From Candidatus Obscuribacterales bacterium (lineage in GTDB: Bacteria; Cyanobacteriota; Vampirovibrionia; Obscuribacterales; Obscuribacteraceae), in assembly GCA_965228855.1 (NCBI GenBank), contig CBDDIJ010000002.1, positions 352,001 to 416,000 of the forward strand: DNA of 64,000 bases, read 5' to 3'. Shown here piece after piece: positions 5,054-62,297 of the stretch (position 1 is the first letter of the stretch; each line of letters opens with the position of its first letter). The notes beneath the pieces were generated by a model. It was not told where the DNA came from. It saw only the letters and a list, made by a program, of their open reading frames with translations, and did no database searches. The position numbers and the translations under genes were made by a program.

Positions 5054-5370
5054 CTACTATATTCCAGCGTATACGTATTTTCGACAGACTCCCACGAGCT
5101 CTGGTTTTCCGAGAACCGTTCCAACTGTTTACTCCCCAAATTGGCAGTTTGTCTACGGCTCGTTGCCGGATTTCGCAAATTCCGGCAATGCCACGTAGAC
5201 ATCGCTCTTAAGCGATATTGATTTCGCAAATTCCGGCAACGAGGCGTAGACAAAGCTCATGAGCGACGCCGATTTCAAGTCGCCTTCTCACGGAAGCTCC
5301 CCCACAGGCAATGGCGGCGAAATCGTCTTCCAGTTTCGCTAGTGCCCCGACAGCCGAAACGCGATAGTAG
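5054..5370. repeat. Arm-core-arm intergenic element, locus 1 (core 5150-5201, extra half core 5221-5252)
   Basis: CTACTATA at 5054; core TGTCTACG-GCTCG-TTGCCGGA-TTTCGCAAAT-TCCGGCAA-TGCCA-CGTAGACA; GATAGTAG at 5363-5370. Confidence 0.9.
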
Positions 5371-6072
5371 TTTCACGCACCTTCATGGCACCATCAGCGG
5401 TACCGCCTCCCAGTTACCGCGACTTCCGTACGTGGACTATTGATCTATGTAGTGTTTTGCATGAAGTCGCGGCAGAGCGTGACAACAACGTGACTGATAG
5501 CAGGAGTCGCGCAAGTTCAATTTTTGAAAACCCTGTTTTTGCGCGCACAAAATTTGCGCCAAGACAAATTTCCACAAGCTGGAGAAACATACTGTCACCC
5601 TCAAGAAGCGCTCCAACAGACACGTTTCAACATATGCATATCCGATGCGGAAAGACGCGATACACTCCGTTACGACATAACTTACGAAACTTAGTTTAGA
5701 AGATGAACTCGGAATCGGTAGATTGATTGGTATCAACACATCCCATGTAGTCATCACTTAGACACTCCTCGACCTTTGCCAGATGCAGCCAAACCGTTTC
5801 CGCAGCTCACTTTATTGTGGCTCGGTCGGTCTCGCATCCGGAAGGCAGGCGTGTGATGGGTTGATTGGGTCAAGGCTGCACGACCGGCTTGCCGCTCGCT
5901 GACGGTACCTTGACGCAAATAGCGACTTCCACCGCGACAGGCGAAACCTGCCGCTAAGGAGCTATTTGCAATGAAGAGTCTGGACACGAACTATCATCTA
6001 GACTTTCGTGGCAACAATTGGCCTTCTTTAGCTGTTCATGTGTGCCTGCGCGAGAGCAAAGGTACAACCATT

Positions 6073-6789
6073 ATGAACACGCTCAACAATGCCAATCACG
6101 CCGCTGCCTCTTCCCACAAGAACTCCAAGAAGAGCTTCTCCGTCTATCTCGCTGGCGACCTCTGGACGCACAAGGATCTGATCGGTAATGCTCTTCTCGG
6201 CGACTACATCAAGAAAGTCTCGCGGGGGCGCTATGAATGCGTTCTGCCGCAGGACCTGGAAGAACCCGTCCATCGCACTGTCGACATTCGCAACGTCGAC
6301 CTGAAACACGTAATGATGTGCGATATGGCAATCTTCAACTTCGACGGTTCCAATCTCGATTCCGGAACCGTGGTCGAGTTCATCTACGCCAAGATGATCG
6401 ATGTTCCGTGCGTCATCCTCCGCACCGACTTCCGGGCTTCCGGCGAGGGCGCAGAGGGACAGGATCCGTGGAACCTGATGGCTTCGCACTGGCCGCGTTC
6501 CAAAGTCGTTAAGCTGCACGGCATGGCCGAGTACCAGAGCGCCAAAGCAGGCACTCTGGGCAGAACCATCGAAAAGCTGTACAAGAAGATGTCCAGCCAG
6601 ATCGTCGAAGGTCTCGATGCCGTGAGACAGGAAGCGCCGCTCGTGGCAAATCCGGCTCGCATGGCGATGCTGTACGACTGGGCTATTGAGTGCCCCGGTG
6701 CCGGTTACAGCAACCTCTTTGAGAAAGCGGACCTGCAGCAGCTCCTCGCCGCCAAGATGGCGAAGGGTCTTCTCGCTAAGCATTCGTAG
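6073..6789 (+). CDS. Nucleoside 2-deoxyribosyltransferase / N-glycosidase family protein
   Basis: VYLAG, D..IFNFDG and DSGTVVE motifs of the NDT fold. Confidence 0.85.
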   Translation: MNTLNNANHAAASSHKNSKKSFSVYLAGDLWTHKDLIGNALLGDYIKKVSRGRYECVLPQDLEEPVHRTVDIRNVDLKHVMMCDMAIFNFDGSNLDSGTVVEFIYAKMIDVPCVILRTDFRASGEGAEGQDPWNLMASHWPRSKVVKLHGMAEYQSAKAGTLGRTIEKLYKKMSSQIVEGLDAVRQEAPLVANPARMAMLYDWAIECPGAGYSNLFEKADLQQLLAAKMAKGLLAKHS

Positions 6790-6896
6790 CCAATTCTAGC
6801 GGTTTCGAATCAACAGGTACTTCTAAGTTTTGAAACGCGCTGCCGGCGATCGAAACTACGGTTGCCGGCAGCCATCCCAATTCAAGGGAGGCTCAC

Positions 6897-7712
6897 ATGA
6901 AACAAGCAGAGAGACCGTTACCTGACTGGATGCAGAAGGCAGCAGCTGCCAATGCTCCTTTCAATGAAGAGAACACGCCGCTACTCCGACTATGGAAGGG
7001 CCTGGCCAATAAAGCTCAAGGGTTCGAGACCCTGGTCACCACCATGAAACAGGTTCAGGACCGTATGGCTCTGCTCGATACCGCGCCTCGCCACGACACG
7101 ATTCTAAGCGACGAACTCCTGCGGCAAGTAGCGCACAACAGCTATCACTGGCCGTTGCATGCCGCTCGAAATCGGCTCGAGCACTCACTAACGACAATCG
7201 ATGAAGCTTTCGCCAAGCTTCAGCACGTATTCCGCGGAGATCTGAAAGTCGCCTATTACGATCGCCTGGCACGCCATCGCGCTGAGGCTCAGAATCTGAT
7301 CGAACTGTTTTCAAAAATGCCATTCGACAAGGCTGTACAGCCTTTTACGATCCGGCAGCAAAACATGGCCAACCTCTATCACCAAATCAACGACTTCGTT
7401 GGTATCATCACGCCCCTGCGGCGGAGGTTCAAACCTGGAGAACTGCCCGAGGGAGTCTTAGAGGATCTTAAAGAAGTCGAGGCGGAGATTTATCGTCTAA
7501 GGTCGTCATTCGCGCGCTGGCGCGACAATCCCAGTCAAAAGCTGGGACGCAAGATGGCTGACGCACACGCTCGCTGCCATAAGATGTACATGACCGTCTC
7601 ACGTATCGCGCACAATGCGCGGTACGAATGCCAGCAACTCGGCATGATCTTCTGGGGGCGAGGCGGTCAGATCACCCTCCGGCCGTGGACACCGCCGACG
7701 CCGCTTCTGTAG
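6897..7712 (+). CDS. Hypothetical helical protein
   Basis: 271-aa ORF with GGAGG RBS; no family recognised. Confidence 0.65.
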   Translation: MKQAERPLPDWMQKAAAANAPFNEENTPLLRLWKGLANKAQGFETLVTTMKQVQDRMALLDTAPRHDTILSDELLRQVAHNSYHWPLHAARNRLEHSLTTIDEAFAKLQHVFRGDLKVAYYDRLARHRAEAQNLIELFSKMPFDKAVQPFTIRQQNMANLYHQINDFVGIITPLRRRFKPGELPEGVLEDLKEVEAEIYRLRSSFARWRDNPSQKLGRKMADAHARCHKMYMTVSRIAHNARYECQQLGMIFWGRGGQITLRPWTPPTPLL

Positions 7713-7923
7713 AAGATCGTGCAATTTAACAGAAAGTCGCAAAGCAGTGAGCCGACCAACTTCGACCGGTGAACGAATGTATATTCGCTCGCCGCAAAAC
7801 AGAATATCGACACTGCCCGCGGTGTCGATATTTTGAGAAAACATTCACGACGAGCCGGTGTTCATCGCCGACTCGTCATATCGGCTTATCGACCGGCCGC
7901 AACAACGACAATTGGAGTCCAGC

Positions 7924-8571
7924 ATGCCAGCAGTCTATCTGTTCGACCTGTGGCTGACTCTTGTCTTCGGTCTCACGACGGACCCGATCCTGACACTTCA
8001 GGAACAACTCGGGCTCGGAGTGAGAGTGGGTCATGTCACCACCATGAACGACGGCTTCCTGAACACCTGCCTGACGACCAACATTCCCGACGAACGCGAG
8101 TTTCTGCGGAACATCGCGCGAAGGCACGGCATTAAGGTGAACAGGAAGCACCACCGGCAGTTCCGCGAGCTCACCGCTCTGGAACAGCAAAAAGTGACTC
8201 TCTATCCCGAAACGCTCGCCGTCTTGACTGAACTCAAGGCACGCGGCGCGCGCATCGGTCTGATCTCGAATCTCTGGCCGTTCCCAGTGCAACGAGTCTT
8301 CGACGAAATGGGTCTGGCTGTTCACTTCGAACACCGGCTCTACTCATTCGAGGTGGGTAGCCGCAAACCCGATGGTCGCATCTTCCTGGAAGCGTGTCGG
8401 CGTTTCGGCGTCACGCCTGCCGACTGCCTGATGGTGGGCGATAGCTTGAGCTCCGACATCGCCGGCGCCCTGAGCGTTGGCATGCCGGCGGCTTTCGTGA
8501 ACCGCTCCGGCAAGACCGTTTCCAGTCCTCCAGGCGTGAAGCAAATCGTGTCGCTCAACGACTTGCTCTAG
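7924..8571 (+). CDS. HAD-superfamily hydrolase, paralog of 2326..3021
   Basis: FDLWLTL, ISNLWPFP, RKPDGRIF and MVGDSLSSD; GGAG before ATG 7924. Confidence 0.9.
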   Translation: MPAVYLFDLWLTLVFGLTTDPILTLQEQLGLGVRVGHVTTMNDGFLNTCLTTNIPDEREFLRNIARRHGIKVNRKHHRQFRELTALEQQKVTLYPETLAVLTELKARGARIGLISNLWPFPVQRVFDEMGLAVHFEHRLYSFEVGSRKPDGRIFLEACRRFGVTPADCLMVGDSLSSDIAGALSVGMPAAFVNRSGKTVSSPPGVKQIVSLNDLL

Positions 8572-8586
8572 GCCAGAAATAGTCCG

Positions 8587-8617
8587 GAAAGAAGGGGCAC
8601 CGCTCGCCCCTTCTTTC
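8587..8617 (+). terminator. Probable intrinsic terminator hairpin
   Basis: GAAAGAAGGGGC-N7-GCCCCTTCTTTC just after the stop at 8571. Confidence 0.7.
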
Positions 8618-8652
8618 GGCGAATCGCCCCACTTTCCAATTGCCCAGCCTCT

Positions 8653-8799
8653 CTACGATAGCGAACAGTAGAAACGATTCACGCGTTCCCGCGCCAGCCT
8701 GGCTTTCAGGACACTGGTCTCGAATACTTCCTCAAAATTCTGCTCGTTGTCTATGCCACATTGCCGGAATTCGCAAATTTCGTCAATGCTGCATAGACA
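8653..8799. repeat. Arm-core element, locus 2 (core 8748-8799; right arm not seen)
   Basis: CTACGATA at 8653; core TGTCTATG-CCACA-TTGCCGGA-ATTCGCAAAT-TTCGTCAA-TGCTG-CATAGACA. Confidence 0.85.
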
Positions 8800-8962
8800 T
8801 CGTTCGACTTCCGTCCGCGCTCTGTCGACGGAACACGTCATGCTCCTTACGGTATGGACGATTGACCACTTTCATACCGCGAACGGAAACGGCGCCCCGG
8901 AATTCCTCAGAAGGAATAGGACCTCGCCAACTTTCATATCTCGAAAGGAATACTGAACTTCA

Positions 8963-9062
8963 TTGAATTGAATTGAATTGAATTGAATTGAATCGAATCG
9001 AATTGGACTGAACTGAATTGAACTGAACTGGACTGGACTGGACTGGACTGGACTGGACTGGA
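8963..9062. repeat. Pentanucleotide tandem repeat, 20 units
   Basis: (TTGAA)6 (TCGAA)2 TTGGA (CTGAA)2 TTGAA CTGAA (CTGGA)7. Confidence 0.95.
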
Positions 9063-9528
9063 CACCGCCGATGGTGTCACTCGAATTTCAAGGCGCGCAA
9101 ACGGTTTAGCAAACAGAGTCAAAAACGCTCACAGTATGAGCGTTTGATAAGGTTGAAAAGAGGTCTTAGCGCAAGCTCGGTGAGGTCACGTTCAGCTTGA
9201 TTTGCACGAGCGCGCTTCAAACTTCAAAATATACGTTATCTAAGAAACGCGGGAAGTAAGAGAGCACGGACTGAAGCAGAAAGCCAAGGCTGAGAGCTAT
9301 CTTTGAATTTTCTACGCGATAAGTTCTAGGGTCCGTTGTCCCCTATCAAATCCGCGTGAGATTGCCAAACCACCAGAAAGTCCGCCTTGTAGCCCTTCCG
9401 CATCCCTGTTCAGCTGACGCTCAGGTTTTTCCTGGACGGTAGTTGCTCAGTGCAGATATTGAGCGCAACTGGCTGGCGCTGGCAATCGACGCGAATTCAA
9501 ACCTAAACCGCAAGGAGATTCTTGCTAA

Positions 9529-10533: not shown

Positions 10534-10579
10534 GCGGTCAGCTCATTTCGAAATGGAACTCTCAAAGGAGAAATTCAAA

Positions 10580-12133: not shown

Positions 12134-12323
12134 GCACCGCCTGCGGTGCCGGCAATGTTTTCCGGATGGCGAGGTCAACGCGATTTGACCTCGCCGACCA
12201 TTCTCTGCTCCAGGGTCTGAACCTGGCTCCGTCAATCCAGCAGCGACGGTTTTAGCGAATTCCGTCGCTGTCTCATTGATGGACGGTCTCGTTCAACACA
12301 CCGATTGTTCGAAAAGGAACGAT

Positions 12324-13561: not shown

Positions 13562-13798
13562 CTACTATATTCTTCCGTATCGTTCAAACGAGCACATCGA
13601 CTGCCCAGTCACGGTTTTCGCGGATCATTCAAGTTCATCCTCCGGAAGAAGGCTGTGTTTGTCTACGACAGAATGCCGGATTTCGCCAAAAGCGTCATTC
13701 CAGGATAGACAAAATGACTTACGGCTTTTACATAACAACCGCTAAACCAGCGCCATTGGGCATCCCGAGACCATCACAGAAACGATATCCTATAGTAG
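13562..13798. repeat. Arm-core-arm element, locus 3 (core 13660-13711)
   Basis: CTACTATA at 13562; core TGTCTACG-ACAGA-ATGCCGGA-TTTCGCCAAA-AGCGTCAT-TCCAG-GATAGACA; TATAGTAG at 13791-13798; lies between convergent genes. Confidence 0.9.
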
Positions 13799-16017: not shown

Positions 16018-16749
16018 ATTGTGCCTTTCGAAAGTTTGCAGAAACAGCCCTTTGGGGTGAAGCGCGCGCCAAGTGGGCTTGTAACCCGGCGCGTGCACCT
16101 TATGGTTTCAGCCAGCCCAAGCAATCGATTCGCCGCCCAGACCCATCTCCGTGTCCCACCACCGCATAATGTGCGAAGAGGCAGGGGAGGATTGCGTCTG
16201 TTTTTCGGTGGGCGGGTTCTCGAATGCAGTGAGTGAGGCAAGTACAAATCTTTGGTATCAAAAAGATGACAGCCGAGACAATCACCGCGAGCATTAGTAT
16301 TTGGAAATAAGAACTTTCGCGCATCATGAACCGAATGTGAAAAGAGCCGAATTCTTGATCAGTTCTACTGCGACCACGCGCGTGATAAAGCTCCGCGCAC
16401 CTAGCGCTAGCTCGCTTGTAAAGAGGATCGTTACACAGTAACCATGCGTAACCTCCCCTGTCGAAAAACCATCCGAGCTGGCACAACATCGTGATATTTT
16501 GCCATTTCACACAAAGCTCTTCACCTGCATACTTTCTCAGGAGCTAAACCGTTTACAGCCTCGCACCGCATACGGTGCACAGATGTCTCGCCAAAACCGT
16601 CGCTCTCTCATTGACAGGGCTTGAGACTCATTTATGACAAGCTCGGATGCCTTGCCTCGCAGGTCTTTATCAATTAAACTGTTCGCTATGAAAGGCTCCG
16701 CTTTCGCGTAGAAGCCTTTCATCCTTTTTCAAATGAAACGGACTGTCTT

Positions 16750-16886
16750 TGTCTATCCTACGATGCCGGAATTCGGAAATTTCGTCGCTCTCCGATAGCC
16801 AAAAAAACTCTCCGCCTCGAAGCGATCCGGAGAACCCCGACCGCATCAAGGTTTCCGGAATCCACTTTTCCTATGTTTTATAGTAG
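16750..16886. repeat. Core-arm element, locus 4 (core 16750-16801; left arm not seen)
   Basis: TGTCTATC-CTACG-ATGCCGGA-ATTCGGAAAT-TTCGTCGC-TCTCC-GATAGCCA; TATAGTAG at 16879-16886. Confidence 0.85.
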
Positions 16887-17303: not shown

Positions 17304-17828
17304 AGGTTTCTTTCGTTTGTTGTTGTTGTTCTGGAAAGAGCTTCTCGCCGAACCCCTCCGAAAACCGGCTCACGACCTGCCACTACGGTGCAGCAGAGAA
17401 AACGTGAGAAGAAAGCGTGCTTGTGTTTCTAGTTAGAGAATTCCGGAAAATCAGATAGGGTCGAGAAGTACACCGAGACTATCGATCCAACGACAGCAAC
17501 ACAAGGTTTGATTATTACATATAAAGGCAAAGGTTCATCGAAAGAAACGCTGATAACCAGGCACTCTTCGAAGGTTTCAATAATGCGAGCCGCTCGCAAC
17601 TGTTTCACTCCGGACGAAAAACATTCGCACATTCGGATCGGGTAGCTCGCCGCTTTGATATTGCAGAAAACTTTTTGATGCTTGGAAACACTGATAGGTT
17701 CGGCATTCCCGCCCCTATCGTAATTTTCCCATGAAAACGGTACAGAATGTTCACACAATATCCCTAGGGTATTCGTGTCGGGACTCCGCAATATCAATCC
17801 CGATTCGAGTCAAACAAAAGGTTGGGTT

Positions 17829-18713
17829 ATGGTCATGGTTAAAACTGCACTTCCGCAAGAGCTTTCAAATCTAATCGGCGAGTACGAGCGCAGCCTCAAT
17901 AGTAAGGAATTCTCCGCTCACACGAAGCGCGCCTATATCTCAAGAAACAAAAAATTTCTTTCCTACCTACATGAGTCCGAGGGAATCTCCTCGATGACGA
18001 ACTTCGACAAAGGCTGGTCAGAAGTCATCAATAATTACAGAGAATTTCTCAAGAGCGAGCATCAAGCATCTCTGAATTCAATCAATAACAGCTTGACCGC
18101 AATCGAAGACATCTTTTCTTTCATCGGCGTCGACATGGGTCGGGTCGAGCGCGAAGCATGGCCGAAATCGACTCCGCGCTGTCTGACGCAGCATGAACAG
18201 GAGCTGTTCATAAACGCTGTTTACCGTACAAAATCGTCTAAAGATAAAGCGATTGTTCTACTGATTTTGTTTACCGGTATTAAAATCGGAGAATGCGCAT
18301 CGTTAGATATAGACGACATCTTCATCAGCGCACACACAGGTCGAATCACTGTAAAAGACGGTCGCATCATACCACTGAATACGGTGGCACGCCGGGCCCT
18401 TATTCAATGGCTTATCGACCGCCACAAAAAATTTGGCGAAACCGCTGAGCGCGCATTATTCCTCAATCCTCAAGGAAAACGTATTTCAACGGTCGGCATC
18501 GATCTTATCGTCCGCAAGATCGGACACAAGGCTCACCTCAATATCTCAGCACAAGTTCTTCGTGACACCTGCTTGAGCAACCTGGTGAGAAACGGAAACG
18601 ACCTCTTGCTCGTCGCACAGATCGGCGGACATAGAACGATTGAAACCACAAGACGCTATACCAGCTCCCGGAGCTTTGATGCTCACGAGGCGATGGAAGC
18701 GCTCGGTCACTAA
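17829..18713 (+). CDS. XerC/D-like tyrosine recombinase-family protein with atypical catalytic residues
   Basis: N-terminal SAHTKRAY; box I KDKAIVLLILFTGIKIGE; box II SAQVLRDT...GGHRTIETTRRY. Confidence 0.85.
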   Translation: MVMVKTALPQELSNLIGEYERSLNSKEFSAHTKRAYISRNKKFLSYLHESEGISSMTNFDKGWSEVINNYREFLKSEHQASLNSINNSLTAIEDIFSFIGVDMGRVEREAWPKSTPRCLTQHEQELFINAVYRTKSSKDKAIVLLILFTGIKIGECASLDIDDIFISAHTGRITVKDGRIIPLNTVARRALIQWLIDRHKKFGETAERALFLNPQGKRISTVGIDLIVRKIGHKAHLNISAQVLRDTCLSNLVRNGNDLLLVAQIGGHRTIETTRRYTSSRSFDAHEAMEALGH

Positions 18714-22948: not shown

Positions 22949-23381
22949 CTACTATATTCCGGCGTATTCACATTTCCCGGAGAATGATTGACCAGTGGAG
23001 GTTTGCGGCGTTCATCCTTCCAAACCAGTGTGCATTCTTGCCAGTTTGTCTACGCCTCATTGCCGGATTTCGAGAAAAGCGGCAATGGCTCGTAGCCACC
23101 GCTCACTACTATATTCCGGCGTATACGCCTTTTTCGGACAACCCTCTCCCCTTGGAGCTTTCGGGCATCACCCATCCGGATCGGAGTCAATTTTTGCAGG
23201 CTTGTCTACGCCTCATTGCCGGATTTCGCGAAAAGCGGCAATGGCTCGTAGACAGAGCCCAGCCAAAAGCTGGTCATAAAACCTGAAAGCCCGCTCGGTG
23301 CTTAAACCACCTTTGATATGATCTAGTAGTAGTCCTGAAAGCCAGACCGGTGCTTAAACCGCCTTTAAAACGATCTAGTAG
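22949..23381. repeat. Tandem double element, locus 5 (cores 23047-23098 and 23203-23254; duplicated right arm)
   Basis: CTACTATATTCCGGCGTAT at 22949 and 23106; two near-identical 52-bp cores; TCTAGTAG at 23322 and 23374 inside a 52-bp-period duplication. Confidence 0.92.
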
Positions 23382-33426: not shown

Positions 33427-33721
33427 CTACTACATCCCGGAGTATCTTGGAATTACTACTATAGTAGACAGTCTAAATTTCCTACCAGAAGAATCCCGAG
33501 ACGCAGCAATAGCAGCCCTTTCAAGATTTAAAACATATCCCACGTCAATTCAAATTCTATTTTGTCGCTGTCAGATAGCCGGATTTTCAGGAAAGCGTCA
33601 TACTGGGATAGACACGGCTCGTCCAGAAAAAGGGAACAGATGTCGAAGATGCGCTGCTGCCCCACCACATCGCAACTTCAGCATTTCGGACTTTTATAGT
33701 AGACACGGTTGCTTATAGTAG
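33427..33721. repeat. Arm-core-arm element, locus 6 (core 33563-33614; multiple arm sites)
   Basis: CTACTACA at 33427; CTACTATAGTAG at 33456-33467; core TGTCGCTG-TCAGA-TAGCCGGA-TTTTCAGGAA-AGCGTCAT-ACTGG-GATAGACA; TATAGTAG at 33695 and 33714. Confidence 0.88.
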
Positions 33722-33817: not shown

Positions 33818-34693
33818 TCACTTCCCCTTGCGCGGGTCGAGATTGATGAACGGGATCTCGCCTTCGCTCATGTACTCGGGGACTTCGCCATCCCACTTCT
33901 CCGCCCGGCGCAGCTCGAGGAGGCCGGCGGCATCCTTGAGCGCCTCGCCCTTCAGCTGGATAGCCGTCGCGCGCGCCTTGGAGAGAAGTTCGGTTTCGTA
34001 CGCGCGGGCATCGGCGATCTTCTTCTTCACGTCACCGGACGCGCGAGCGATCGTAGCCTTCTGGAGAGCTTCGCTCTCGGCCTGCTGCGCACGCTGCTCG
34101 GCCTCGACCTTCGAGTCGATGGAGTCGTTGAACTCCTTCGAGAAATCGAAGTCGGTGATCGCCACCATGTTGATGACGATGGCGCCGGCGAGACCCTTTT
34201 CAGCCAGGGCACCTTCGATCGCCTTGGTGAGCTCCTGAACGACGCGGTCCTTGACCTCGGGTCGCTTCTGGATGAGCTCCTCGGCGAGGTAGCCGCCGGT
34301 GACCTGCTTCAGCGCCTGCTGCACGTTGTTGTCGAAGTACGCGGCATTGATGGCGGCGACACCACCCACGGTGGCATACACGCGCGGCCACATATCGTCC
34401 TTGATCGAGTAGGCGACGGTGATCTCCGTCGGCGCCGACTGACCCTTCACGGTCGCGGCAGCAGCCTTGATGTGGTGGACGAGCTGCGTGGTCGGCAGCT
34501 GCACGACGCTCTTCAGGGGGCTGATGATCATGGGACCATCGCCGCTCTTGACCGGGGTGGGCTCGACCGAGCCGAACTGCGTGACGACGCCGACGTAGCC
34601 CGGGTTGACCCAGGTGACAGTCCGCGCAAGGAAACCGAGGCCGATGACCGCGGCGACGCCCACACCGATGAGGGCAATCTTCTTGGTGTTCAT
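33818..34693 (-). CDS. SPFH/prohibitin-family membrane protein
   Basis: N-terminal TM, VNPGYVGVV..FG, FSKEFNDSIDSKVEAEQ, KWDG. Confidence 0.9.
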   Translation of the reverse strand: MNTKKIALIGVGVAAVIGLGFLARTVTWVNPGYVGVVTQFGSVEPTPVKSGDGPMIISPLKSVVQLPTTQLVHHIKAAAATVKGQSAPTEITVAYSIKDDMWPRVYATVGGVAAINAAYFDNNVQQALKQVTGGYLAEELIQKRPEVKDRVVQELTKAIEGALAEKGLAGAIVINMVAITDFDFSKEFNDSIDSKVEAEQRAQQAESEALQKATIARASGDVKKKIADARAYETELLSKARATAIQLKGEALKDAAGLLELRRAEKWDGEVPEYMSEGEIPFINLDPRKGK

Positions 34694-34716
34694 GTCCGTA
34701 ATTCCTTCTCGCTCGA

Positions 34717-35613
34717 TTACTTCGACGGGGTCAGCATGGGAACAGGCATCGTGCCGGAATACTTCGGCAGCTTGCCCTTCCAGCGGCTGATCGCGGTGAG
34801 TTCGACCAGGTCGGGATTCTCGCGCAGAGCGGCAGCCTCGCGCTTGATGGCGTCGGCTTCCTTCTTGGCCAGCTCGACGGTCGAGTAGGCTTCGGCTTCC
34901 GCGCTGGCGCGAATGCTCTGAGCCTCACCCTCAGCCTCGGCGACCATCTTGGCGCCCTCGTTGCGAGCACGCTCAGCGTCCTGGCCGGCCTTCACCTTCG
35001 CCTCGATGGCAGCGGCGAACTTCGGCGTGAAGTCGAGGTTGTCCAGGGTGGCGCGGCCGATCTGGATCGAGCCCGGAGCGCCCTTGGACGTCATCGAAGC
35101 GGCGACGTGCGCGCGAATTGTGGACTCGATTTCATCGCGAACGGTTTCGCGCCTCTTCACGAGGTCGGTGGCCGAGAAGTTGGCCGTCACAGCCTTGACC
35201 GATTCCTGGATGGCAGGATCGAGAATGGCAGCCTCGAAGTTTTCGATCGTGCCATATTCGCGGTAGAAAACCGGCGCCTGGGTGTCGATCAGGTTGTACG
35301 GGACGGTGACCACGGTCGTGACCTTCTGCAGGTCATGCGAGCCGGAATTGGCGGTCGCCTTCTTGGGATTGACGAACGTCTGCAGCAGGTCGACCCGCGA
35401 GAGCGGATTGACGATGTTGAACCCGGGGGCCAGCGGCTGCGGATTCATCACGCCGAACAGCGACGTCGCACCCACGTAGCCACGCGGCACGATCTGCACC
35501 GAGTTCCAGCCGGCGATCACCAGAGGGATCGCGATGAGCGCGTACTTGATCAGGCTCAGGGGGTTGAACGGAGCGGCTCCATCCGAACGCCCGTTGAGGA
35601 AGGGAATCTTCAT
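34717..35613 (-). CDS. SPFH/prohibitin-family membrane protein (second paralog)
   Basis: IVPRGYVG, SHDLQ, FTPKFAAAIEAKVKA, RWKGKLP; start at ATG 35613. Confidence 0.9.
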   Translation of the reverse strand: MKIPFLNGRSDGAAPFNPLSLIKYALIAIPLVIAGWNSVQIVPRGYVGATSLFGVMNPQPLAPGFNIVNPLSRVDLLQTFVNPKKATANSGSHDLQKVTTVVTVPYNLIDTQAPVFYREYGTIENFEAAILDPAIQESVKAVTANFSATDLVKRRETVRDEIESTIRAHVAASMTSKGAPGSIQIGRATLDNLDFTPKFAAAIEAKVKAGQDAERARNEGAKMVAEAEGEAQSIRASAEAEAYSTVELAKKEADAIKREAAALRENPDLVELTAISRWKGKLPKYSGTMPVPMLTPSK

Positions 35614-35984: not shown

Positions 35985-36274
35985 CTACTATACATTTTCG
36001 TATCACCAAAATACTGCAAACGACTGCTGCGATGGTCTTTCGAGAATTACGCAGCAAGCAGAACGGGCTTCAAGAACCCGTTTGGCAACGACAGATAGAC
36101 GGAATTTCAAGAAAGCGTCATTCCAGGATAGACAAGAAGCGACTAGACTTGGGTCACATCCCCCGGAAGCTAGACGGGCGCACGAACATGACCCTATCTT
36201 CTATAGTAGCACTTCGGACCATCTACCCCGGAAGCTGGACGGGCGCACGAACATGACCCTATCTTCTATAGTAG
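35985..36274. repeat. Arm-core-arm element, locus 7 (core 36083-36134; right arm duplicated with 65-bp period)
   Basis: CTACTATA at 35985; core TGGCAACG-ACAGA-TAGACGGA-ATTTCAAGAA-AGCGTCAT-TCCAG-GATAGACA; 49-bp repeats 36161-36209 and 36226-36274 both end in TATAGTAG. Confidence 0.9.
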
Positions 36275-37843: not shown

Positions 37844-38494
37844 ATGCGCGCACCATTACTACTTGCCGTCGCAGCAGCGATACTACCCCTGGTATCAGCT
37901 TGCCAGAAGCCGCCAGAGAAAATCGTCGTAAAACTCGAGCCAACGACAAAAGCGGATTACGGCTTTTCAATCGACATGCCCGTCCCATACGTCGAAAGAG
38001 ACATTTCCTGCGGAAAGTGTCTCTACTACAACACACCACTTGGAACGTACAAAGTCGTAGTGAATATGTTCACGATGGCGATGTCCAATTCCTCGACCGC
38101 TCAAGCGCGAATGAATCGAGACCGAATGCAACTTCAGTCTCTTCAAGCACATGCGGGTACTTACGTTGACGCACTAAGTTCGCGTGGTTCCAAGACTATT
38201 TTGTTGAACTACAAACATCAGGGGTTCGAAGACAAAGGCAGCACAAACATCATCCCAAGTCCTGATGGACACCGGCGCTTGCGCACGAAGTGGGCAGACA
38301 ACGAAATTATTCTGAACGACTCGAATCCTGTCGGCGAGTACATAATCCGAGGCTACGTCGGAGAAAACGCCATCTACACAACATCCGTAGAAGGACGACC
38401 GGAATTCGTCAACACGCCGGAAGCCACACAGTTCCTGGATTCCTTCAAGATCGTCGGCTCATCGGCCCTGCCGCCAGGCAAAGCCGCGCCGTAA
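37844..38494 (+). CDS. Hypothetical lipoprotein
   Basis: Lipobox LVSAC; C-terminal FLDSFKI. Confidence 0.7.
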   Translation: MRAPLLLAVAAAILPLVSACQKPPEKIVVKLEPTTKADYGFSIDMPVPYVERDISCGKCLYYNTPLGTYKVVVNMFTMAMSNSSTAQARMNRDRMQLQSLQAHAGTYVDALSSRGSKTILLNYKHQGFEDKGSTNIIPSPDGHRRLRTKWADNEIILNDSNPVGEYIIRGYVGENAIYTTSVEGRPEFVNTPEATQFLDSFKIVGSSALPPGKAAP

Positions 38495-38506
38495 GGCGAC
38501 AAATCC

Positions 38507-38748
38507 TGTCTACTATAAGACAAAGTATCCACAAAGTCCGAAAGGCCTTGTTCTACAATGCTTCCCGCTCTGCGACGTCCAATTACTGCGTCACTTGTCT
38601 ATCTGGCTATGACGGATTTGCCGAAATCCGTCGCTCTCCCGTAGCCAAGCAAGCAGGTTTCGCGCACACTCCGACGACGCACTCGCTGGAAACCCATCTC
38701 TCCCAGACCTTTCGAGGATCGCTATATACCCACTCTTTATAGTAGACA
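38507..38748. repeat. Arm-core-arm element, locus 8 (core 38596-38647)
   Basis: TGTCTACTATAA...TTATAGTAGACA outer inverted repeat; core TGTCTATC-TGGCT-ATGACGGA-TTTGCCGAAA-TCCGTCGC-TCTCC-CGTAGCCA; fills the gap between convergent genes. Confidence 0.92.
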
Positions 38749-38756
38749 ATCCGGAG

Positions 38757-52587: not shown

Positions 52588-53046
52588 CTACTATATGATC
52601 CCGTTTTTCCCGCCGCCCTACTATATGATCTCGTTTCTTTTCAACGACCGCTGACACCCGGCTAGCCTTGTGGCGCAACCAAGGACAGCCTCGCTCCCGT
52701 CCAGGGCACTCGTCGCAAGGCACTTTTGGCTACGTAGCGTAGACGGATTTTCAAAAATCCGGCAACGCCACAGCGCCAAAACGCAGTTGATCTCACTTTA
52801 AAACGCAACCAAAGCGGACTAAAAACCAGACGAACTCTGACTTCTAGCGCATCCACGCTATCCTACGGCATCTAGTAGCTATGCAACAGGCACTTTTGGC
52901 TACGCTGCGTAGACGGAATTTTCAAAAATCCGGCAACGCCACAGCGCCAAAACGCAGTTCGCAAACCTCAAACTGAAATCAAACGCCCAAGAACTAGTCT
53001 CACTAGGTCCTTTCAAGGAACGAGCTTATACGTCGGCTTATAGTAG
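52588..53046. repeat. Tandem double element, locus 9 (cores 52727-52778 and 52897-52949)
   Basis: CTACTATATGATC at 52588 and 52618; cores TGGCTACG-N5-TAGACGGA-N10/11-TCCGGCAA-CGCCA-CAGCGCCA; TCTAGTAG at 52871; TATAGTAG at 53039. Confidence 0.9.
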
Positions 53047-54201: not shown

Positions 54202-54211
54202 CGATGACTCG

Positions 54212-55261: not shown

Positions 55262-55277
55262 TTAGTTTCAAAAACAC

Positions 55278-56246: not shown

Positions 56247-56831
56247 GTTTCAGGGAGTCCATTTACACAGCAAAACGGATTGGAAGAATGCGCGCACCTC
56301 GCAGTCGAGGCGTCAGCACCCTGCCATAAACTCTCTACCCACTGACGAGAACAAAATCACCCGGATCGATCGAGGACAGGAGCTGAAGCCGATCTCGCCT
56401 ACTGACAACCCGGAATTACCGAAAGAAACTCCTGAAATGACACTATGAAGAATACCTCACGTTAGCTATTTGCAGAGCTAGCGAAGCATCGCCAAAACCC
56501 GCACCTGTTGGCGTTCGCCCCGATCCGTATGTCCTGTTCCGGTCGAGCTCGGTATAGCTTTCCGAATCCAGAACCTTTCAAGCTAGTTATTATTAAACTC
56601 TTCGCGGTTGTCATCAAATACCGCCTATTACTACTTTAAAAGCATCATTAGTTTTTCTTTTGACCATCCAAACGCAAGCACTGTTATAGCTAGATTTTTC
56701 ACGCGACATTTTCCTCTACCCGAGGATAAATTCAACTCGCGCTGAGAACCTCGCTCTAGCTGTGCGCGTCACTGCTGTCGGCGTCTCGCGATGTCGACAT
56801 CACAGGCGTTAGCCTCCATAGGACAGGGAAT

Positions 56832-57851
56832 ATGATTCTCGCAAATCCACTATGGCTCTTGCTTGTGCTGCTGCTGCCAATCCCGTGGTTGGTGGCGCGA
56901 CGCAAGGGCTACGTCGGTCTACCCGGCGTCGGCAGAATCGCCCCCATTAAGGGCGGCTGGATTCTGCATCTGATTCCTGTTTTGCTTCTTGTCGCTGGTT
57001 TCGCAAGTTTGTCCATCGCACTGGCACGCCCTCAGAAGCTGCATGTTGTAACGACCAACTCGTTCAAGTCTCGCGACATTTTGATTGGCGTGGACATCTC
57101 CGGCTCGATGGCAGGACACTTCGGCAAACCGCCCGAGAGTGTCGTCGGCCAGACCGAGCTGGATAAGGACTTCCCAGGACGTCCCGATCGCCAGCCCAAG
57201 GGCAAGCAGGACCCGTTTAGCGGGATTGGTGAGCGGCGCATCGACAACGCGCAAGCAGCCACTCTCGACTTCATTCGCAACCGTTATCTCGCCAAAGCCG
57301 GCGACCGCGTCGGACTTTTCGTGTTCGACACCGAGCAGTACTGGCACTGGCCGCTGACGCATGACCTCAAGATGATCTACCGGAAAGTGCACTTTGCAGA
57401 CGAAGGTCTGGGCGGCGGCACCAATTTCGGCAGTTATCCTCCCGGTCCGCTCGACGCAGCTGCTGAGCATCTCGATGACATGGGTCGCGCCGCCACGCGC
57501 GTGCTGATCATGGTCACCGACTGCGAAGACAGCGTCTACGGCGACACTTTCAATCGCCTGGAAGCGCTCGCAGCAAAATACAGGTTGAAACTGTATGTCG
57601 TGGTCGTCGGCTCGTCGCAGGCGGACCCGGACATCATCCGGCTCGCCGAAGCGACCGGCGGAAAAGGTTTTCGCGCCGACAACCCTCAGGACCTCAAGGA
57701 CTGCTTTCAGACCATCGACAAGATGGAGCAGTCTACGGTCACTGTGGAGACTTCGGAGAACCGCGAAGAGCTTTTCTTCTACTTCGCCTGGGCGGCAATC
57801 GGTCTCTTTCTTCTCGGCACCATCGGCGAGGCACTCGTCCTCAACCGATAG
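56832..57851 (+). CDS. VWA-domain membrane protein (MxaC/BatA-like)
   Basis: N-terminal P.WLLL, ALARPQ, MIDAS DISGSM, DRVGLFVF, VTD. Confidence 0.88.
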   Translation: MILANPLWLLLVLLLPIPWLVARRKGYVGLPGVGRIAPIKGGWILHLIPVLLLVAGFASLSIALARPQKLHVVTTNSFKSRDILIGVDISGSMAGHFGKPPESVVGQTELDKDFPGRPDRQPKGKQDPFSGIGERRIDNAQAATLDFIRNRYLAKAGDRVGLFVFDTEQYWHWPLTHDLKMIYRKVHFADEGLGGGTNFGSYPPGPLDAAAEHLDDMGRAATRVLIMVTDCEDSVYGDTFNRLEALAAKYRLKLYVVVVGSSQADPDIIRLAEATGGKGFRADNPQDLKDCFQTIDKMEQSTVTVETSENREELFFYFAWAAIGLFLLGTIGEALVLNR

Positions 57852-57924
57852 TTCGATTGGCAGCAGGGTGAACAACTCCCGCCGGGAGTCGCTACTGCCG
57901 CCTGGAATCAGGAGTTAGCACACG

Positions 57925-58461
57925 ATGACAAATCTAGCAGATTTCATCCGTGCTTATCGTGTTCAGGCTATGACCCTACTGATGGTGGCAAGCATCTGCG
58001 CGTCGCTGTACGGGGTTTACCGCCTGGTTTCTTATTCGGTACCGATGGCGTCTGAGGATTTCGTTGGCGCAGTCGAATCGCCGGTTGCGGATCGTCCGCT
58101 GGTTCTCTACAACTTGGGGCTGCAAGCCTACAAGATGGAGAACCACGACATCGCCAAGCAGATTCTGACTGATGCGTTCAATGAGCTCACCAGGAACACG
58201 GGCGTGGTTCCTCCCGACAGGAAGGAACTCGCCGGCCAGATCCAGTTCATGCTGGGTGTGGTCAACGAACACGAAAAGCAGTTTCGCGTTGCGATCACGG
58301 CGTACGAAGATTGTCTTCGTCAGACGCCGGAGAATCTCAATGCCAAGTACAACCTCGAGCGGCTGAAGCAGCAATTTCCCGACATGGGCAAGGGCGGCTC
58401 ACCGCAAGATCCGTCCGGAGATCCCTCCTCCGGCAAACGCAATGACAAGAAGGGCATCTAG
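57925..58461 (+). CDS. TPR protein (MxaK/BatC-like)
   Basis: YNLG, A...Y..LR..P.NLNAKYNLE. Confidence 0.78.
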   Translation: MTNLADFIRAYRVQAMTLLMVASICASLYGVYRLVSYSVPMASEDFVGAVESPVADRPLVLYNLGLQAYKMENHDIAKQILTDAFNELTRNTGVVPPDRKELAGQIQFMLGVVNEHEKQFRVAITAYEDCLRQTPENLNAKYNLERLKQQFPDMGKGGSPQDPSGDPSSGKRNDKKGI

Positions 58462-58472
58462 GAGAGATAACT

Positions 58473-59600
58473 ATGCATCTCATCAATCCGACGGTGCTCT
58501 GGCTGCTCGTGGCGATTCCGCCGCTGGCAGGCTTGGCACTGTGGTTCGCCTGGAAACAGAACGAAAGTTTCCAGGATCGTTTCGGTGACAGAAAGCTGTT
58601 CGGGCGGCTCTCCGAGTTCGTCACGTCCGGCACTTACGCGGTCAAGGCAGTCTGCCTGATCGTGGGATTGTCACTACTAGTGGTGGCGCTCGCGCGTCCG
58701 TCGATTAAGAACGGTACCGCTGAGTTCCCGCACGGTAACATCGATGTGATTGCCATCGTCGACGTCAGTCGCTCGATGGCGGTGCCTGACTACAAAGGCA
58801 CACTCGATGGCACCACCTATGCCGAAGGGCGCAGGCTGGATATGGCGCGGCATCTTATCCTCACGGACATGATTCCGTCGCTCAACTACAACCGGCTCGG
58901 CATCGTATCCTACGCCGGCTCCGGTTTCCCGATGGCCTTCCTGTCGGACGACATGCTGGCACTGGACTGGATGCTGAAACGCGCGCTCGTCATGGGCAGC
59001 GCTCCGGGCGAAAACTCGGAACTCGGCAAAGCCTTCCAGATGGCAAACACGCTGTTCGACCTCGACTCGAAGCCGGGGAATCGGCGCATCGTCGTGCTGT
59101 TCTCGGATGGTGGCAACGACACGGAACTGCCGGAATTGCATGAGGCGATTGCCGAAATGCAAAAGCGCGGTGTCGAGCTCATCATCGTCGGTCTCGGCAA
59201 GCCAGTCGGACAGCCCATCCCGGTGAAGCTTCTGAGCAGAGCGGACCAAAACCGCTTCTCCGACTCGGAGTTCTACCAGCACGAGGGACAAACGGTCACG
59301 TCCAAGCTCGAGGAGAACACGCTTCTTCTCATGCGCAACATGACAGGCGCGCGCTATGTTCGCGTCGTCAATCCGTCCGACTTCAAGATTGGCAATCTGA
59401 TTTCGCGGGCCGATGTAAAATTCAAAGATGGTGAACAGGAACTGTTCGTCTGGCCGCTCATGTTGGCGGCGCTGTTCCTGATGGCCACTCTGTTCATCCC
59501 ACGCACTCGCAAGAGCGGTAATTTGTCGCAATACAAGTTCCGCCGAGACGAGAAGCATAAGTCTCCTGGTCGAGCGCAACGCGACCGGGCGAACGAATGA
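58473..59600 (+). CDS. VWA-domain membrane protein (MxaL/BatB-like)
   Basis: ALARP, DVSRSM, LFSDG. Confidence 0.88.
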   Translation: MHLINPTVLWLLVAIPPLAGLALWFAWKQNESFQDRFGDRKLFGRLSEFVTSGTYAVKAVCLIVGLSLLVVALARPSIKNGTAEFPHGNIDVIAIVDVSRSMAVPDYKGTLDGTTYAEGRRLDMARHLILTDMIPSLNYNRLGIVSYAGSGFPMAFLSDDMLALDWMLKRALVMGSAPGENSELGKAFQMANTLFDLDSKPGNRRIVVLFSDGGNDTELPELHEAIAEMQKRGVELIIVGLGKPVGQPIPVKLLSRADQNRFSDSEFYQHEGQTVTSKLEENTLLLMRNMTGARYVRVVNPSDFKIGNLISRADVKFKDGEQELFVWPLMLAALFLMATLFIPRTRKSGNLSQYKFRRDEKHKSPGRAQRDRANE

Positions 59601-59615
59601 GGCAAGGAGTTTTCC

Positions 59616-60596
59616 ATGAAAACAATCCTGACCAACCTCGTCGCGCTCGTCGTCTGCGTGTCCCTCGCACTCGGGGGTCTCGTGTGGCTGACCAAGAGCG
59701 ACTTGACGGCTTGGCCTGATTTCAGCGCCGCCTCGCAAAATCCGGAAGATCCCCTGTCACCGCAGGTGGTGTCGGATTTCGATCGCGATTTCGGCTGGCG
59801 CATCGGGGACATTGTTCCCGTTCAGCTCTACCTGCACCAGAAGCCCGGCACCATTGTGGACCTCCACAGCCTGGCGGTGGAAGGGGACTTCGACATTCTC
59901 GAAGAACCCACGATCGTCACTCGCGACTACGAAGACGGCTCGAAGGACATCGGCATCAAGTTCCGAATCCAGAGCATGTCTCCCGCGAAGAAGCTCAACC
60001 TGAAGGTGAGCATGCTCTACCGGCATCTCGCCGGCGGTGACGACAAGCTGATTTCGATTCCCGCATTCGAAGCATACACCTCGCCGACCTGGGATGGTCG
60101 CGACATCATCAAGGATGGCAAGCCGGATTTCATCCAGGAGCACCACATGCTCTGGACCCTGGCGTTCATCTTCGGTGGTATCGCCCTTGCCACCACTGCG
60201 CGCTCCATGCGCCGGCGGTTCGTCGCCGAGGTCGAGCGCGCAAAGAAGAAAGCCTGGGAGACGCGAAGGCAGACCGCCAGACGCGAATTCGACGAAGCCT
60301 GGGCGCGTTTCGAAGCCGGTGAATACCGAGTTGAAAACTACAAAGCGATTGTTCGATGCCTGCGCAAGCTGTTTCGCATCGAATCAAAGGTCCGGCGCGA
60401 GATCGAGCTGGAACTCGGAGGCGGTCATCCCTATCGGGAGCAGACGCTGAAGATTCTCGAGATCACCAGCCGGGTCCTGTACGAAGAACGCGTCCTCAGC
60501 CGGGACGAGCACCAATCCATCAAAGATCTGTTCGATCAGATCGTCCCACCTCAAGTGGGACCAGGAGCGGTCGCCGAAGGCCAGAACGCGAACTAG
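59616..60596 (+). CDS. MxaA/BatD-like membrane protein
   Basis: RDFGWRIGD motif, central TM, helical C-terminus; operon context. Confidence 0.6.
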   Translation: MKTILTNLVALVVCVSLALGGLVWLTKSDLTAWPDFSAASQNPEDPLSPQVVSDFDRDFGWRIGDIVPVQLYLHQKPGTIVDLHSLAVEGDFDILEEPTIVTRDYEDGSKDIGIKFRIQSMSPAKKLNLKVSMLYRHLAGGDDKLISIPAFEAYTSPTWDGRDIIKDGKPDFIQEHHMLWTLAFIFGGIALATTARSMRRRFVAEVERAKKKAWETRRQTARREFDEAWARFEAGEYRVENYKAIVRCLRKLFRIESKVRREIELELGGGHPYREQTLKILEITSRVLYEERVLSRDEHQSIKDLFDQIVPPQVGPGAVAEGQNAN

Positions 60597-60601
60597 CAGC
60601 C

Positions 60602-60658
60602 GAACGGACCGTCCGCGAAGGGGCTTGTAACCCTGGTTGCGGACGGTCCCGTTCTTTT
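60602..60658 (+). terminator. Probable intrinsic terminator
   Basis: GAACGGACCGTCCGC...GCGGACGGTCCGTTC followed by TTTT. Confidence 0.75.
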
Positions 60659-60713
60659 CACGCTTAGCCCGCGCGAGACAACTGCTCGTGCGGACTCCAA
60701 TCGAGTAACTGCC

Positions 60714-61577
60714 ATGACTAAAAGGACTTTCACCCTTCTCGTCGGAGTCCTCCTGCTGGTCGCATTTGCGCCAGTCTGGGCATCCTTGCAGTCCGGGAAG
60801 GGACAAACCATTTCAAATGAGAGGTCATCCTCACAAAAAACCGAATCCATTGCTCGCGGACGTTCGGCGAAAGCCGCTGTTCGCACCCATGAAAACTGCG
60901 TCGACGCGGAGGAAGCCTGCCTGCCGCCCGAAGCACCACCGGTGCTACCACTCAACGGCATCACGATCTTGCTGGACGCCGGTCACGGCGGCAGCGACAG
61001 CGGTGCCATTCGTGCCGGTGTCTACGAAAAGGACGTCAACCTGTCGGTGACCTTGAAGCTCCGCGACCTGCTGGTAAAGCAAGGCGCGACTGTTTATCTC
61101 ACGCGCAAGGACGATACTTTTCTGACACTCGACGAGCGCAAAGCGCTCATCGCGAAGTACGCCCCCACCCTCTTCTTGAGCATTCATTCGAATGCCAATG
61201 ACAAAACCGCAATCGACGGAATTGAGGCGTACTACTGGAATACCGTCAGTCCGACGCTCGCCCAGTCTATTTACCAGGCTGTCGCAGATGGCCTGGGCGA
61301 GCGAGGAAACTGGGTCCGCAAGCGCGAACTTGCCGTGGTACACCACGACTTCGCGCCAGCCGCCCTCATCGAAATCGGCTATTTGTCGAACGCACGCACG
61401 CGCAAGCTGCTCGCGGACGACAAATATCAAACTCGCGTTGCCGACTCGATTGAAGACGGAATCCTCGACTACGTTTCGAAACAGCGCCCTGGAGGCGCTG
61501 GTGGTCCTTCCGGAAACGGAAGCGACACCCCTACCGCTAAGCCTCCCGCGGACAAGTTGTCCGTGGTCGGCCTTTAG
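60714..61577 (+). CDS. N-acetylmuramoyl-L-alanine amidase (Amidase_3)
   Basis: LDAGHGG.D.GA, EKDVNL, SIHSN, LIEIGYLSN; signal peptide. Confidence 0.93.
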   Translation: MTKRTFTLLVGVLLLVAFAPVWASLQSGKGQTISNERSSSQKTESIARGRSAKAAVRTHENCVDAEEACLPPEAPPVLPLNGITILLDAGHGGSDSGAIRAGVYEKDVNLSVTLKLRDLLVKQGATVYLTRKDDTFLTLDERKALIAKYAPTLFLSIHSNANDKTAIDGIEAYYWNTVSPTLAQSIYQAVADGLGERGNWVRKRELAVVHHDFAPAALIEIGYLSNARTRKLLADDKYQTRVADSIEDGILDYVSKQRPGGAGGPSGNGSDTPTAKPPADKLSVVGL

Positions 61578-61610
61578 CGTTCGCAATCAACGAATAGGAG
61601 AAACAGAATC

Positions 61611-61973
61611 ATGGAATTTCTGATCAGCATCGCGCTGCAAGTCCTGGCCCTTCTCGTCGTCGTCCCCGCCGTCACCGGCAACGGCGTCGCTGTTCGCCAG
61701 GGCGGCTTCTTCCGTGGTCTGCTCGTGCTCTTCTGCATCGGGCTCACCAACATGATCCTCTGGTTCGGGCTCACGCTCGTGACCGTGGGCATGACCATCG
61801 TCACCCAGTGGCTGACCTTCGGTCTCGTCGGTCTCCTGATCAACGCGCTGGCGATCAAACTCGTCGGCAATGCCCTCAACGACGTCCTCTACGTCCGCAG
61901 CTACGGCTCGGCGTTCCTGGCGGCCATCGTGATGGTGCTGACCAACTGCGCCATCCGCTACTTCCTGTTCTAA
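61611..61973 (+). CDS. 4-TM phage-holin-family (YvlD-like) membrane protein
   Basis: Four hydrophobic segments; LTFGL..L.INA and SAFLAAIV motifs. Confidence 0.75.
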   Translation: MEFLISIALQVLALLVVVPAVTGNGVAVRQGGFFRGLLVLFCIGLTNMILWFGLTLVTVGMTIVTQWLTFGLVGLLINALAIKLVGNALNDVLYVRSYGSAFLAAIVMVLTNCAIRYFLF

Positions 61974-62047
61974 CGAACAGCCGCTGAGAAGCAGCACCCG
62001 GAACCGCTCACAAAGCGACTTCCGGGTGCTGCCCTCCTCCAGAATTC

Positions 62048-62297
62048 CTACTATAAAGCCCAGTGTTTCCGTTTCTTCCAAATCGCACTCTGACACAGGG
62101 TTTAGGATGCCACTATGTGCGAGCTCAATCGATTTTGTCTATCACACGATGACGAATTTCGCGAAAAGTGTCATCTTGTCGTAGACAGACTCAGAGTTTC
62201 CGCGGTCAAAGCACCCGGGACTCGTAGCAAAGAAGCGCTCACCCACTGCTTTTAAGAGCGGCAGGACGCTAGCCAAGTTTACTTGTCTTTATAGTAG
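62048..62297. repeat. Arm-core-arm element, locus 10 (core 62136-62187)
   Basis: CTACTATA at 62048; core TGTCTATC-ACACG-ATGACGAA-TTTCGCGAAA-AGTGTCAT-CTTGT-CGTAGACA; TATAGTAG at 62290; lies between convergent genes. Confidence 0.9.

Follow-up and report, generated by a model that had tools for sequence, protein, structure and literature searches.

The stretch considered here, hereafter the window, comprises 64,000 nucleotides of the genome of a Candidatus Obscuribacterales bacterium, a relative of the cyanobacteria that is not photosynthetic (G000; assembly GCA_965228855.1, contig CBDDIJ010000002.1, positions 352,001 to 416,000) and carries scattered copies of a short repeat in which a core of about 52 bp is framed by inverted arms (Table 1). 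This repeat family and its candidate partner, a gene encoding a phospholipase D (PLD) nuclease domain fused to an XRE-family helix-turn-helix (HTH) domain, are the subject of this report. An initial annotation, made from the letters of the window, had listed twelve cores, and all twelve were located, eleven of exactly 52 bp and one (52897-52949) of 53 bp; it had also recognized a partial core with its end at 5252 and arms reading CTACTATA and TATAGTAG, all of which are present, but a thirteenth core and a half core, both of the TGTCAAT subclass, had been missed.

Table 1. Repeat elements of the window, in window coordinates, and loci of the second repeat family in G000
Position	Feature	Related strain
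5054-5252	Left arm CTACTATA 5054-5061, core 5150-5201 and partial tandem core 5221-5252	
8653-8799	Variant left arm (8653) and core 8748-8799	
12230-12281	TGTCAAT-subclass core, missed by the initial annotation	
13562-13798	Complete arm-core-arm element, core 13660-13711, between convergent genes	
16593-16886	TGTCAAT-subclass half core 16593-16616, core 16750-16801 and right arm 16879-16886	
22949-23381	Two arm+core units in tandem (cores at 23047-23098 and 23203-23254, with 7 bp at the junction), right arm duplicated	One unit fewer
33456-33721	Element, core 33563-33614, between convergent genes	X5 contig skips 33420-33713 (intervening letters not known)
35985-36274	Element, core 36083-36134, right arm duplicated	
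38510-38745	Complete element, core 38596-38647, between convergent genes	X5 contig lacks the entire intergenic stretch 38491-38754; clean absence
52588-53046	Tandem element with arms, cores 52727-52778 and 52897-52949 (53 bp)	
62048-62297	Complete element, core 62136-62187	
G000:C2:145.6k, 169.9k, 218.9k, 318.2k, 572.6k, 907.9k, 1,040.8k, 1,043.7k, 1,488.9k	Second (TGCAA) family, C2 part	
G000:C5:885.5k, 1,605k	Second (TGCAA) family, C5 part	

Anatomy, distribution and copying of the repeat

Each core consists of two 19-bp palindromes, 33 bp apart from centre to centre, and each half is itself palindromic. To the initial division into boxes and spacers of 8-5-8-10-8-5-8 nt, one of 8-3-8 / 14 / 8-3-8 was preferred, the 14-bp spacer having A-tract edges. 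The CTACTATA arm starts 74-76, 84-89, 96-101 or 107-110 bp outside the core, that is, in steps of ∼11 bp or about one helical turn, and weaker phased motifs lie inside it; the arms, thought to flank most cores, are present, but on only 241 of 420 half-elements. Nor do the spacers vary freely, as had been supposed: over 145 loci the N5 spacers are fully complementary at 10 (2.9 expected) and the inner N3 at 22 (8.7 expected). Complementarity across the core (145 loci) exceeds chance only at positions 7-14 and at the central dinucleotide, and falls below chance at positions 17, 20 and 21. RNAalifold on 10 window cores gave no consensus hairpin (−1 kcal/mol, 3 pairs), and this result, together with the sub-chance pairing at those three box positions, rules out an RNA or single-strand hairpin. 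Rfam gave 0 matches in the window.

A position weight matrix (PWM) built from 11 window cores gave 212 genome matches at ≥20 bits and 0 in the reversed genome, and the refined PWM places 210 cores at 161 loci of the 8.2-Mb genome (completeness 95.3%), again with 0 in the reversed-genome control. These cores fall into two subclasses of 185 and 25, one of them marked by TGTCAAT boxes. As many as 174 of the 210 lie inside C2:77-1,122 kb, a region of ∼1.05 Mb (12.7% of the genome) that contains dnaA and the GC-skew minimum, at a density ∼33 times that elsewhere. All but one of the 212 matches (211/212) are intergenic, and the core contexts (n = 157) comprise 66 convergent, 78 co-directional and 13 divergent regions, against a background of 76, 214 and 110 among the 400 regions available in the dense region. 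This avoidance of divergent regions (13/157 against 110/400) rules out a promoter or regulator site, and the anatomy is consistent with a double-stranded site for a protein rather than with a stem-loop or promoter.

The expectation that the motif would recur beyond the window held for the genome, but among relatives the exact core pattern is confined to 2 of the 107 genomes of the order Obscuribacterales. It was not found at syntenic sites of five congeners, and viral contigs gave 0 matches. Among the matches listed, a scan over 49 of the 64 parts of a genome collection yielded at least 61 stretches from Obscuribacterales records and at least 3 from one Acidobacteria-labelled contig, which is 92-94% identical to G000 and probably misbinned. 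The crowding of copies at the origin may reflect local hopping from origin-proximal genes or targeting of the GC-rich domain that they occupy. The origin-proximal domain itself (G000:C2:1-1,122,000) has a G+C content at third codon positions (GC3) of 0.68 against 0.54 elsewhere, with a step near 1.1 Mb, and is also seen in orthologues of the relative G046 (0.69 against 0.54) and weakly in G004. The repeats are ruled out as its creators since G046 has the domain without the core family, so that the domain is older than the family.

The DNA between core and arms had been described as unalignable between loci. For most linker pairs the similarity does not exceed that of a column-shuffled null (median 44% for both), but the best pairs of distant loci are 65-91% identical against a null maximum of 64%, and this homology implies that copies were dispersed by copying. 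In the pair C2:1120499 / C5:1318273 the homology runs from arm to arm with none beyond, and other pairs have one arm and the core in common, so that many copies are mosaics. The initial proposal of selection on boxes and geometry only, which was to fall if linkers proved homologous, gives way to a copied repeat family, such linkers being found at some distant loci. With most linkers at the null level, the spreading is, by this measure, mostly old. Of 49 tandem spacings, 29 correspond to an arm-plus-core unit, and at 15 of these 29 junctions the gap measures 6-10 bp. The 58 two-armed loci gave no consistent sign of a target duplication over 36 offset/length cells (best cells 9 against 3.6 and 5 against 1.4), a 4-bp candidate at 38510-38745 having failed to generalise over these loci.

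Constraint on the boxes is apparent from 39 orthologous cores of G000 and a sister genome (140 examined, 57 with matched flanks): the boxes diverge by 2.4-2.7%, compared with 8.5% in the N3 spacers, 10.3% in the centre and 10.6% in the flanks, that is, about four times more slowly than the flanks. The absence of a consensus hairpin from the window cores, the ∼11-bp arm steps and the roughly fourfold conservation of the boxes thus suggest that the core behaves as a double-stranded, multi-subunit binding site of fixed geometry, in keeping with what had been proposed for it. Four sequencing runs compared with the master locus contained no empty allele among the joints shown.

Two IS110 families use the core as target. 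Three identical 1,254-bp IS110-family elements encoding a 320-aa DEDD transposase (G000:C2:774.7k, 858.6k and 1120.8k; L090, L092) have the same insertion point in the core's outer box, and every copy of a second IS110-like family, four in G000 (C2:197k, 988k; C5:861k, 1,462k) and one at another sister-genome locus (L031), lies inside a core inner box.

The PLD-HTH gene and its flanking repeats

A gene encoding a PLD domain with a C-terminal XRE HTH is repeatedly present at loci that vary in the sister comparison. One such gene lies at G000:C2:103074-103847 (257 aa), 249 kb from the window, in the layout arm-core-gene-core-arm, and all five PLD-HTH paralogues of G000 fall within C2:67-1,043 kb. 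Both at another G043 locus and on a separate contig from a metagenome, TGTCAAT-class arrays frame the gene for a 54%-identical sister protein, in line with the existence of two core subclasses. Another G000 paralogue has, on both sides, arrays of a second paired-operator family of the same 33-bp spacing (TGCAA boxes, 102-bp tandem unit), of which 44 copies are present in G000, 39 in G043 and 0 in the 105 other genomes. The initial judgement that the element matches no described family stands, and a co-distributed gene for a DNA-binding enzyme was found on search.

The protein retains the features of a nuclease. The full HKD motif (HxKxxxxD-x6-GSxN) is present in 67 of 72 complete open reading frames (ORFs), the 257-aa protein of G000 included, and 4 more keep HxKxxxxD. 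The ratio of nonsynonymous to synonymous polymorphism (pN/pS 0.011/0.152) indicates that the gene is under purifying selection. In the AlphaFold model (predicted local distance difference test, pLDDT, 94.6) residues 3-157 match NucT, Nuc, SauUSI and BfiI (Z 13.4-15.3), with root-mean-square deviations of 2.2 over 131 aligned residues for NucT (Z 15.3) and 2.4 over 132 for BfiI (Z 13.4); residues 169-241 match C.AhdI, C.BclI and HipB, and the archaeal chromatin protein TrmBL2 is also a fold match (Z 12.4). The nearest PADLOC profile is Mokosh MkoC, matched by 64 of 65 members. A profile of the protein recovers 472 clusters at E ≤ 1e-30, their taxonomy mostly unrecorded, and 147 of the best 150 cover both domains. 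Among 400 other genomes of the phylum, with only six candidates scored in each, no such fusion turned up; plasmids yielded no partner protein, viral contigs one PLD-only match, and the ESM Atlas generic HTH clusters only, below 0.9. A full-length homologue (P0085) is encoded on a 1.6-kb contig labelled Candidatus Saccharimonadales, which may be a misbin or may indicate a wider range.

Within the order, the full-length gene occurs in 30 of the 107 genomes in up to ten divergent copies, and some match in 58, the rest being PLD-only or partial. The surroundings of 75 PLD-HTH loci across Obscuribacteraceae were scored for four agreeing boxes at 32-34 bp spacing within 700 bp of the gene (threshold 22/24). 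Paired dyads of at least 22/24 are present at 29 of the 75 loci, with box sequences that differ between families and a spacing that is the same. Among the controls this score was reached by 5 of 150 genes drawn at random from G000, by 1 of 62 tiles taken from relatives and by 0 of 76 relatives of the PLD-only kind, which have no HTH. When the spacing was scanned from 22 to 60 bp, a peak was observed at 32 (11 loci) and 33 bp (14 loci), with 5 or fewer elsewhere. If these flanking dyads belong to repeats, they should be dispersed within their own genomes, and this prediction held for 6 of 7 patterns: 58 copies were found in G019, 10 and 3 in G072/G071, 6 in G021, 11, 4 and 4 in G092/G096/G089, 8 and 26 in G004/G006, and 44 for the second G000 family, the backward-pattern controls giving 0 save 4 in G006. 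In genus g2 the flanking repeats were not found in G005, G008 and G009, all without the gene. All 8 copies in G004, a 5.0-Mb single contig, lie within 230 kb of dnaA. In the G006 copies the core contains an asymmetric operator in direct as well as in inverted pairs, perhaps a sign of flipping. Box sequence tracks protein similarity (Mantel r 0.26, 0/5000 permutations, 26 loci after four sister duplicates were dropped; protein tree by a quick method), and related proteins have, in this comparison, related boxes, though kin inherit both traits by descent. On these sequence comparisons the gene-repeat association is well supported.

Some other genes stand close to cores. The two SPFH/Band-7 genes at window positions 33818-35613 (minus strand), between the elements with cores at 33563 and 36083, are not in the syntenic regions of five congeners, and two genes next to this pair are inverted in one congener and missing in two. 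At G000:C3:724.5k-728.0k, 21 tRNA calls on one strand lie within 3.5 kb, with a core at 729.3k. Two ORFs present only in the sister genome were read by eye, one short-chain dehydrogenase-like and between two cores (L006:6366-7262), the other with a patatin-like GISGG motif and adjoining a core (L013:1626-2714).

A candidate mechanism and its alternatives

Taken together, the data suggest that the repeats are dispersed copies whose core is a likely binding site of the PLD-HTH fusion, and that this protein probably spreads them; to this reading, in which both binding and mobilisation are deduced, we assign a probability of roughly 0.55. XRE dimers bind palindromes of 16-19 bp, and nucleases with a single HKD motif must dimerise to form one active site. 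An HTH dimer would accordingly bind each 19-bp palindrome, and a separation of three helical turns would bring the two dimers to the same face of a DNA that the A-tract spacer bends, whereby two single-HKD PLD domains would pair into an active site. The enzyme may then nick near the outer edge of the core or the CTACTA arm via a phosphohistidine intermediate, which is the weakest step of the scheme. Strand transfer or repair synthesis would yield tandem, mosaic and ectopic copies without target duplication, and continued binding would explain the conservation of the boxes at each copy. That homology between distant copies stops at the arms speaks for such a scheme, and a passage in PMC2475615 describes BfiI as joining DNA ends through a phosphohistidine intermediate.

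Several observations weigh against it. Most linkers have no homology above the null, and none of the insertion differences seen was both clean and polarised: the empty allele of X5 may have arisen by deletion, outgroups having 70-100 bp there, such that gain and loss cannot be told apart. No above-threshold dyad is present at 46 of the 75 PLD-HTH loci, some of whose flanks are cut by contig ends, and the 75 include sister-genome duplicates and so are not independent. The G016 pattern matched nothing, its own flanking copy included, and hence did not fit the G016 repeat; G093 has 2 repeats but no gene match, and G100 has one repeat match with a PLD-only gene match. Arms of the CTACT type are found again in the G004 family, but the copies sampled from G006 and G019 lack them. 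Finally, 13 G000 genes have cores on both sides, so that flanking alone does not single out the PLD-HTH gene.

Among the alternatives, one that we consider unlikely is that the PLD-HTH nuclease does harm when it is not sequestered on a large number of paired operators, so that the host keeps the copies and gains more by ordinary recombination and repair, with no strand transfer by the enzyme. Slow divergence of the boxes (2.4-2.7% against 8.5-10.6% in spacers and flanks of the 39 orthologous copies) agrees with such addiction or titration, the Mokosh defence proteins MkoB/MkoC are the nearest match to the PLD domain, as HipB antitoxins and C-proteins are to the HTH, and Bertels and Rainey, in a part of PMC3116915, raise addiction for repetitive extragenic palindromic (REP) sequences and their REP-associated tyrosine transposases (RAYTs). 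It is opposed by the gene loci without a nearby dyad (46/75) and by the copying of whole arm-to-arm units with fixed ends, which ordinary recombination does not explain.

Less probable again, and in our view quite doubtful, is a chromosome-organising function in which the sites would set off a domain around the origin and the protein would act as a nucleoid organiser comparable to parS/ParB, matS/MatP or TrmBL2. Crowding around dnaA (174 of 210 cores here, all 8 copies in G004), constraint on the boxes and the TrmBL2 fold match agree with it. A parS- or matS-type organiser would, however, have site and protein clade-wide, whereas on sequence grounds the core pattern is found in 2/107 genomes and the full-length gene in only 30/107, in up to ten divergent copies; the repeat sequences turn over within a genus, the catalytic motif is retained, and G046 has the GC-rich origin domain without the core family. 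Thus, of the chromosome-organising role first suggested, a universal one is unlikely, given a core sequence family limited to two genomes of the order.

The least probable alternative, an old family like the miniature inverted-repeat transposable elements (MITEs) moved by another transposase or tyrosine recombinase, with PLD-HTH an autoregulated passenger that acquired the palindromes, can point to inverted CTACTA..TAGTAG ends, a length of ∼235 bp, graded linker homology, 17 tyrosine-recombinase matches in the genome and a cross-core covariation confined to a 7-bp spacer and the central dinucleotide, resembling strand-exchange regions, but it is countered by the lack of a consistent target duplication at the 58 two-armed loci, by the failure to find RAYT, Y1 transposase, integron integrase or large serine recombinase in the 95%-complete genome, and by the recurrence of the core geometry beside PLD-HTH genes in unrelated sequence. 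A XerC-like tyrosine recombinase encoded in the window (17775-18713, plus strand; paralogue at G000:C2:923k; patchy in the family) is ruled out as partner because it does not track the repeats: the protein is 89-92% identical in six congeners without the core family and gave no match at E ≤ 1e-40 in G004, G006, G021, G072, G089, G092 and G096, all of which have repeat families.

If the PLD-HTH protein does spread its repeats, it would bring a new chemistry to mobile DNA; the repeat-spreading enzymes that we know of belong to the DDE, DEDD, HUH, tyrosine and serine families, and none to the PLD family. More tentatively, the repeats may represent a PLD-family-driven class of mobile element, in which two operators lie three turns apart, the HKD site is assembled only there, and a phosphohistidine-DNA intermediate copies arm-core-arm units and core-flanked gene cassettes around the origin. 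Such a class would be an independent invention of the REP-RAYT strategy and would provide hundreds of natural HTH-operator pairs reading out a recognition code. Should the protein do no more than bind, it would still form, beside REP-RAYT, a second and unrelated partnership of enzyme and repeat, and comparing the two would offer a test of why REP-like repeats are kept. With its 472 clusters the family is also large, and many members have a readable operator, which makes it a natural set of compact site-specific nucleases with candidate targets.

Comparison with known systems

The controller (C) proteins of restriction-modification systems and HipB bind palindromic operators as dimers, and the HTH described here is closest to those of C.BclI, C.AhdI and HipB; several families have 18-bp TATG..CATA operators, which we take to resemble that of HipB. 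The operators here are, in contrast, dispersed by tens to hundreds and avoid divergent promoter regions, and the HTH is fused to a nuclease. The single-HKD PLD fold is common to Nuc, NucT, BfiI and the Mokosh PLD domain, but the present protein has an XRE HTH joined to this fold by a CxxC linker, lacks a helicase and is accompanied by a dispersed repeat family.

MITEs such as Correia, ERIC and RUP are likewise short non-coding units copied across a genome, with inverted ends as here (CTACTA..TAGTAG); unlike them, the present elements lack target duplication, conserve the interior core rather than the ends and are in many copies one-armed or mosaic. The 13 genes flanked by cores on either side, inspected by eye and with no search for DDE families, include no autonomous insertion sequence that has the same ends and a DDE transposase. 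The likeness to integron attC and lambda attP sites that had been noticed extends to the box-spacer-box dyad and to a core with phased arms over ∼240 bp, but no further: the hundreds of copies lie in both orientations between housekeeping genes, at 161 scattered loci in mixed gene contexts, and do not form a same-orientation, one-site-per-ORF attC cassette array. No integron integrase was recovered (TIGR02249 best 87 bits against a cut-off of 265), the XerC-like gene of the window does not follow the repeats, and a serine-integrase attP geometry was dropped as PF07508, for large serine recombinases, gave 0 matches in G000.

The closest parallel is that of REP/REPIN/BIME repeats with RAYT, for which passages in PMC2817692, PMC3116915 and PMC3733652 describe the features compared here. 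In both systems the enzyme gene is flanked by cognate repeats, more than 100 extragenic copies lie mostly in convergent or co-directional regions, tandem arrays occur, the lineage-specific repeat sequence coevolves with the protein (here PLD-HTH, at loci that are not fully independent) and a genome may hold several enzyme-repeat pairs. REP repeats also serve as IS110 targets (PMC1525189), and the core does likewise. GTAG, of the GTAG/CGTC tag of REP hairpins, is present in the boxes of the main core family, but not in those of the other families. The differences lie in the enzyme, which is a PLD-HTH fusion and not an HUH tyrosine transposase (PF01797 and NF047646 for RAYT and HUH Y1 transposases, 0 matches in G000), in the lack of a conserved single-strand hairpin, in a helical geometry of two operators 32-34 bp apart with phased arms, and in the crowding of copies at the origin. 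As it has neither an HUH enzyme nor a hairpin, the system works like REP-RAYT but is not a member. In the literature searched, which left most subscription papers and supplements outside, no description of such a repeat-nuclease pairing was found. The partnership of PLD-HTH and paired-operator repeat is thus undescribed and, with a catalytic role that we infer for the protein, stands parallel to that of REP repeat and transposase.

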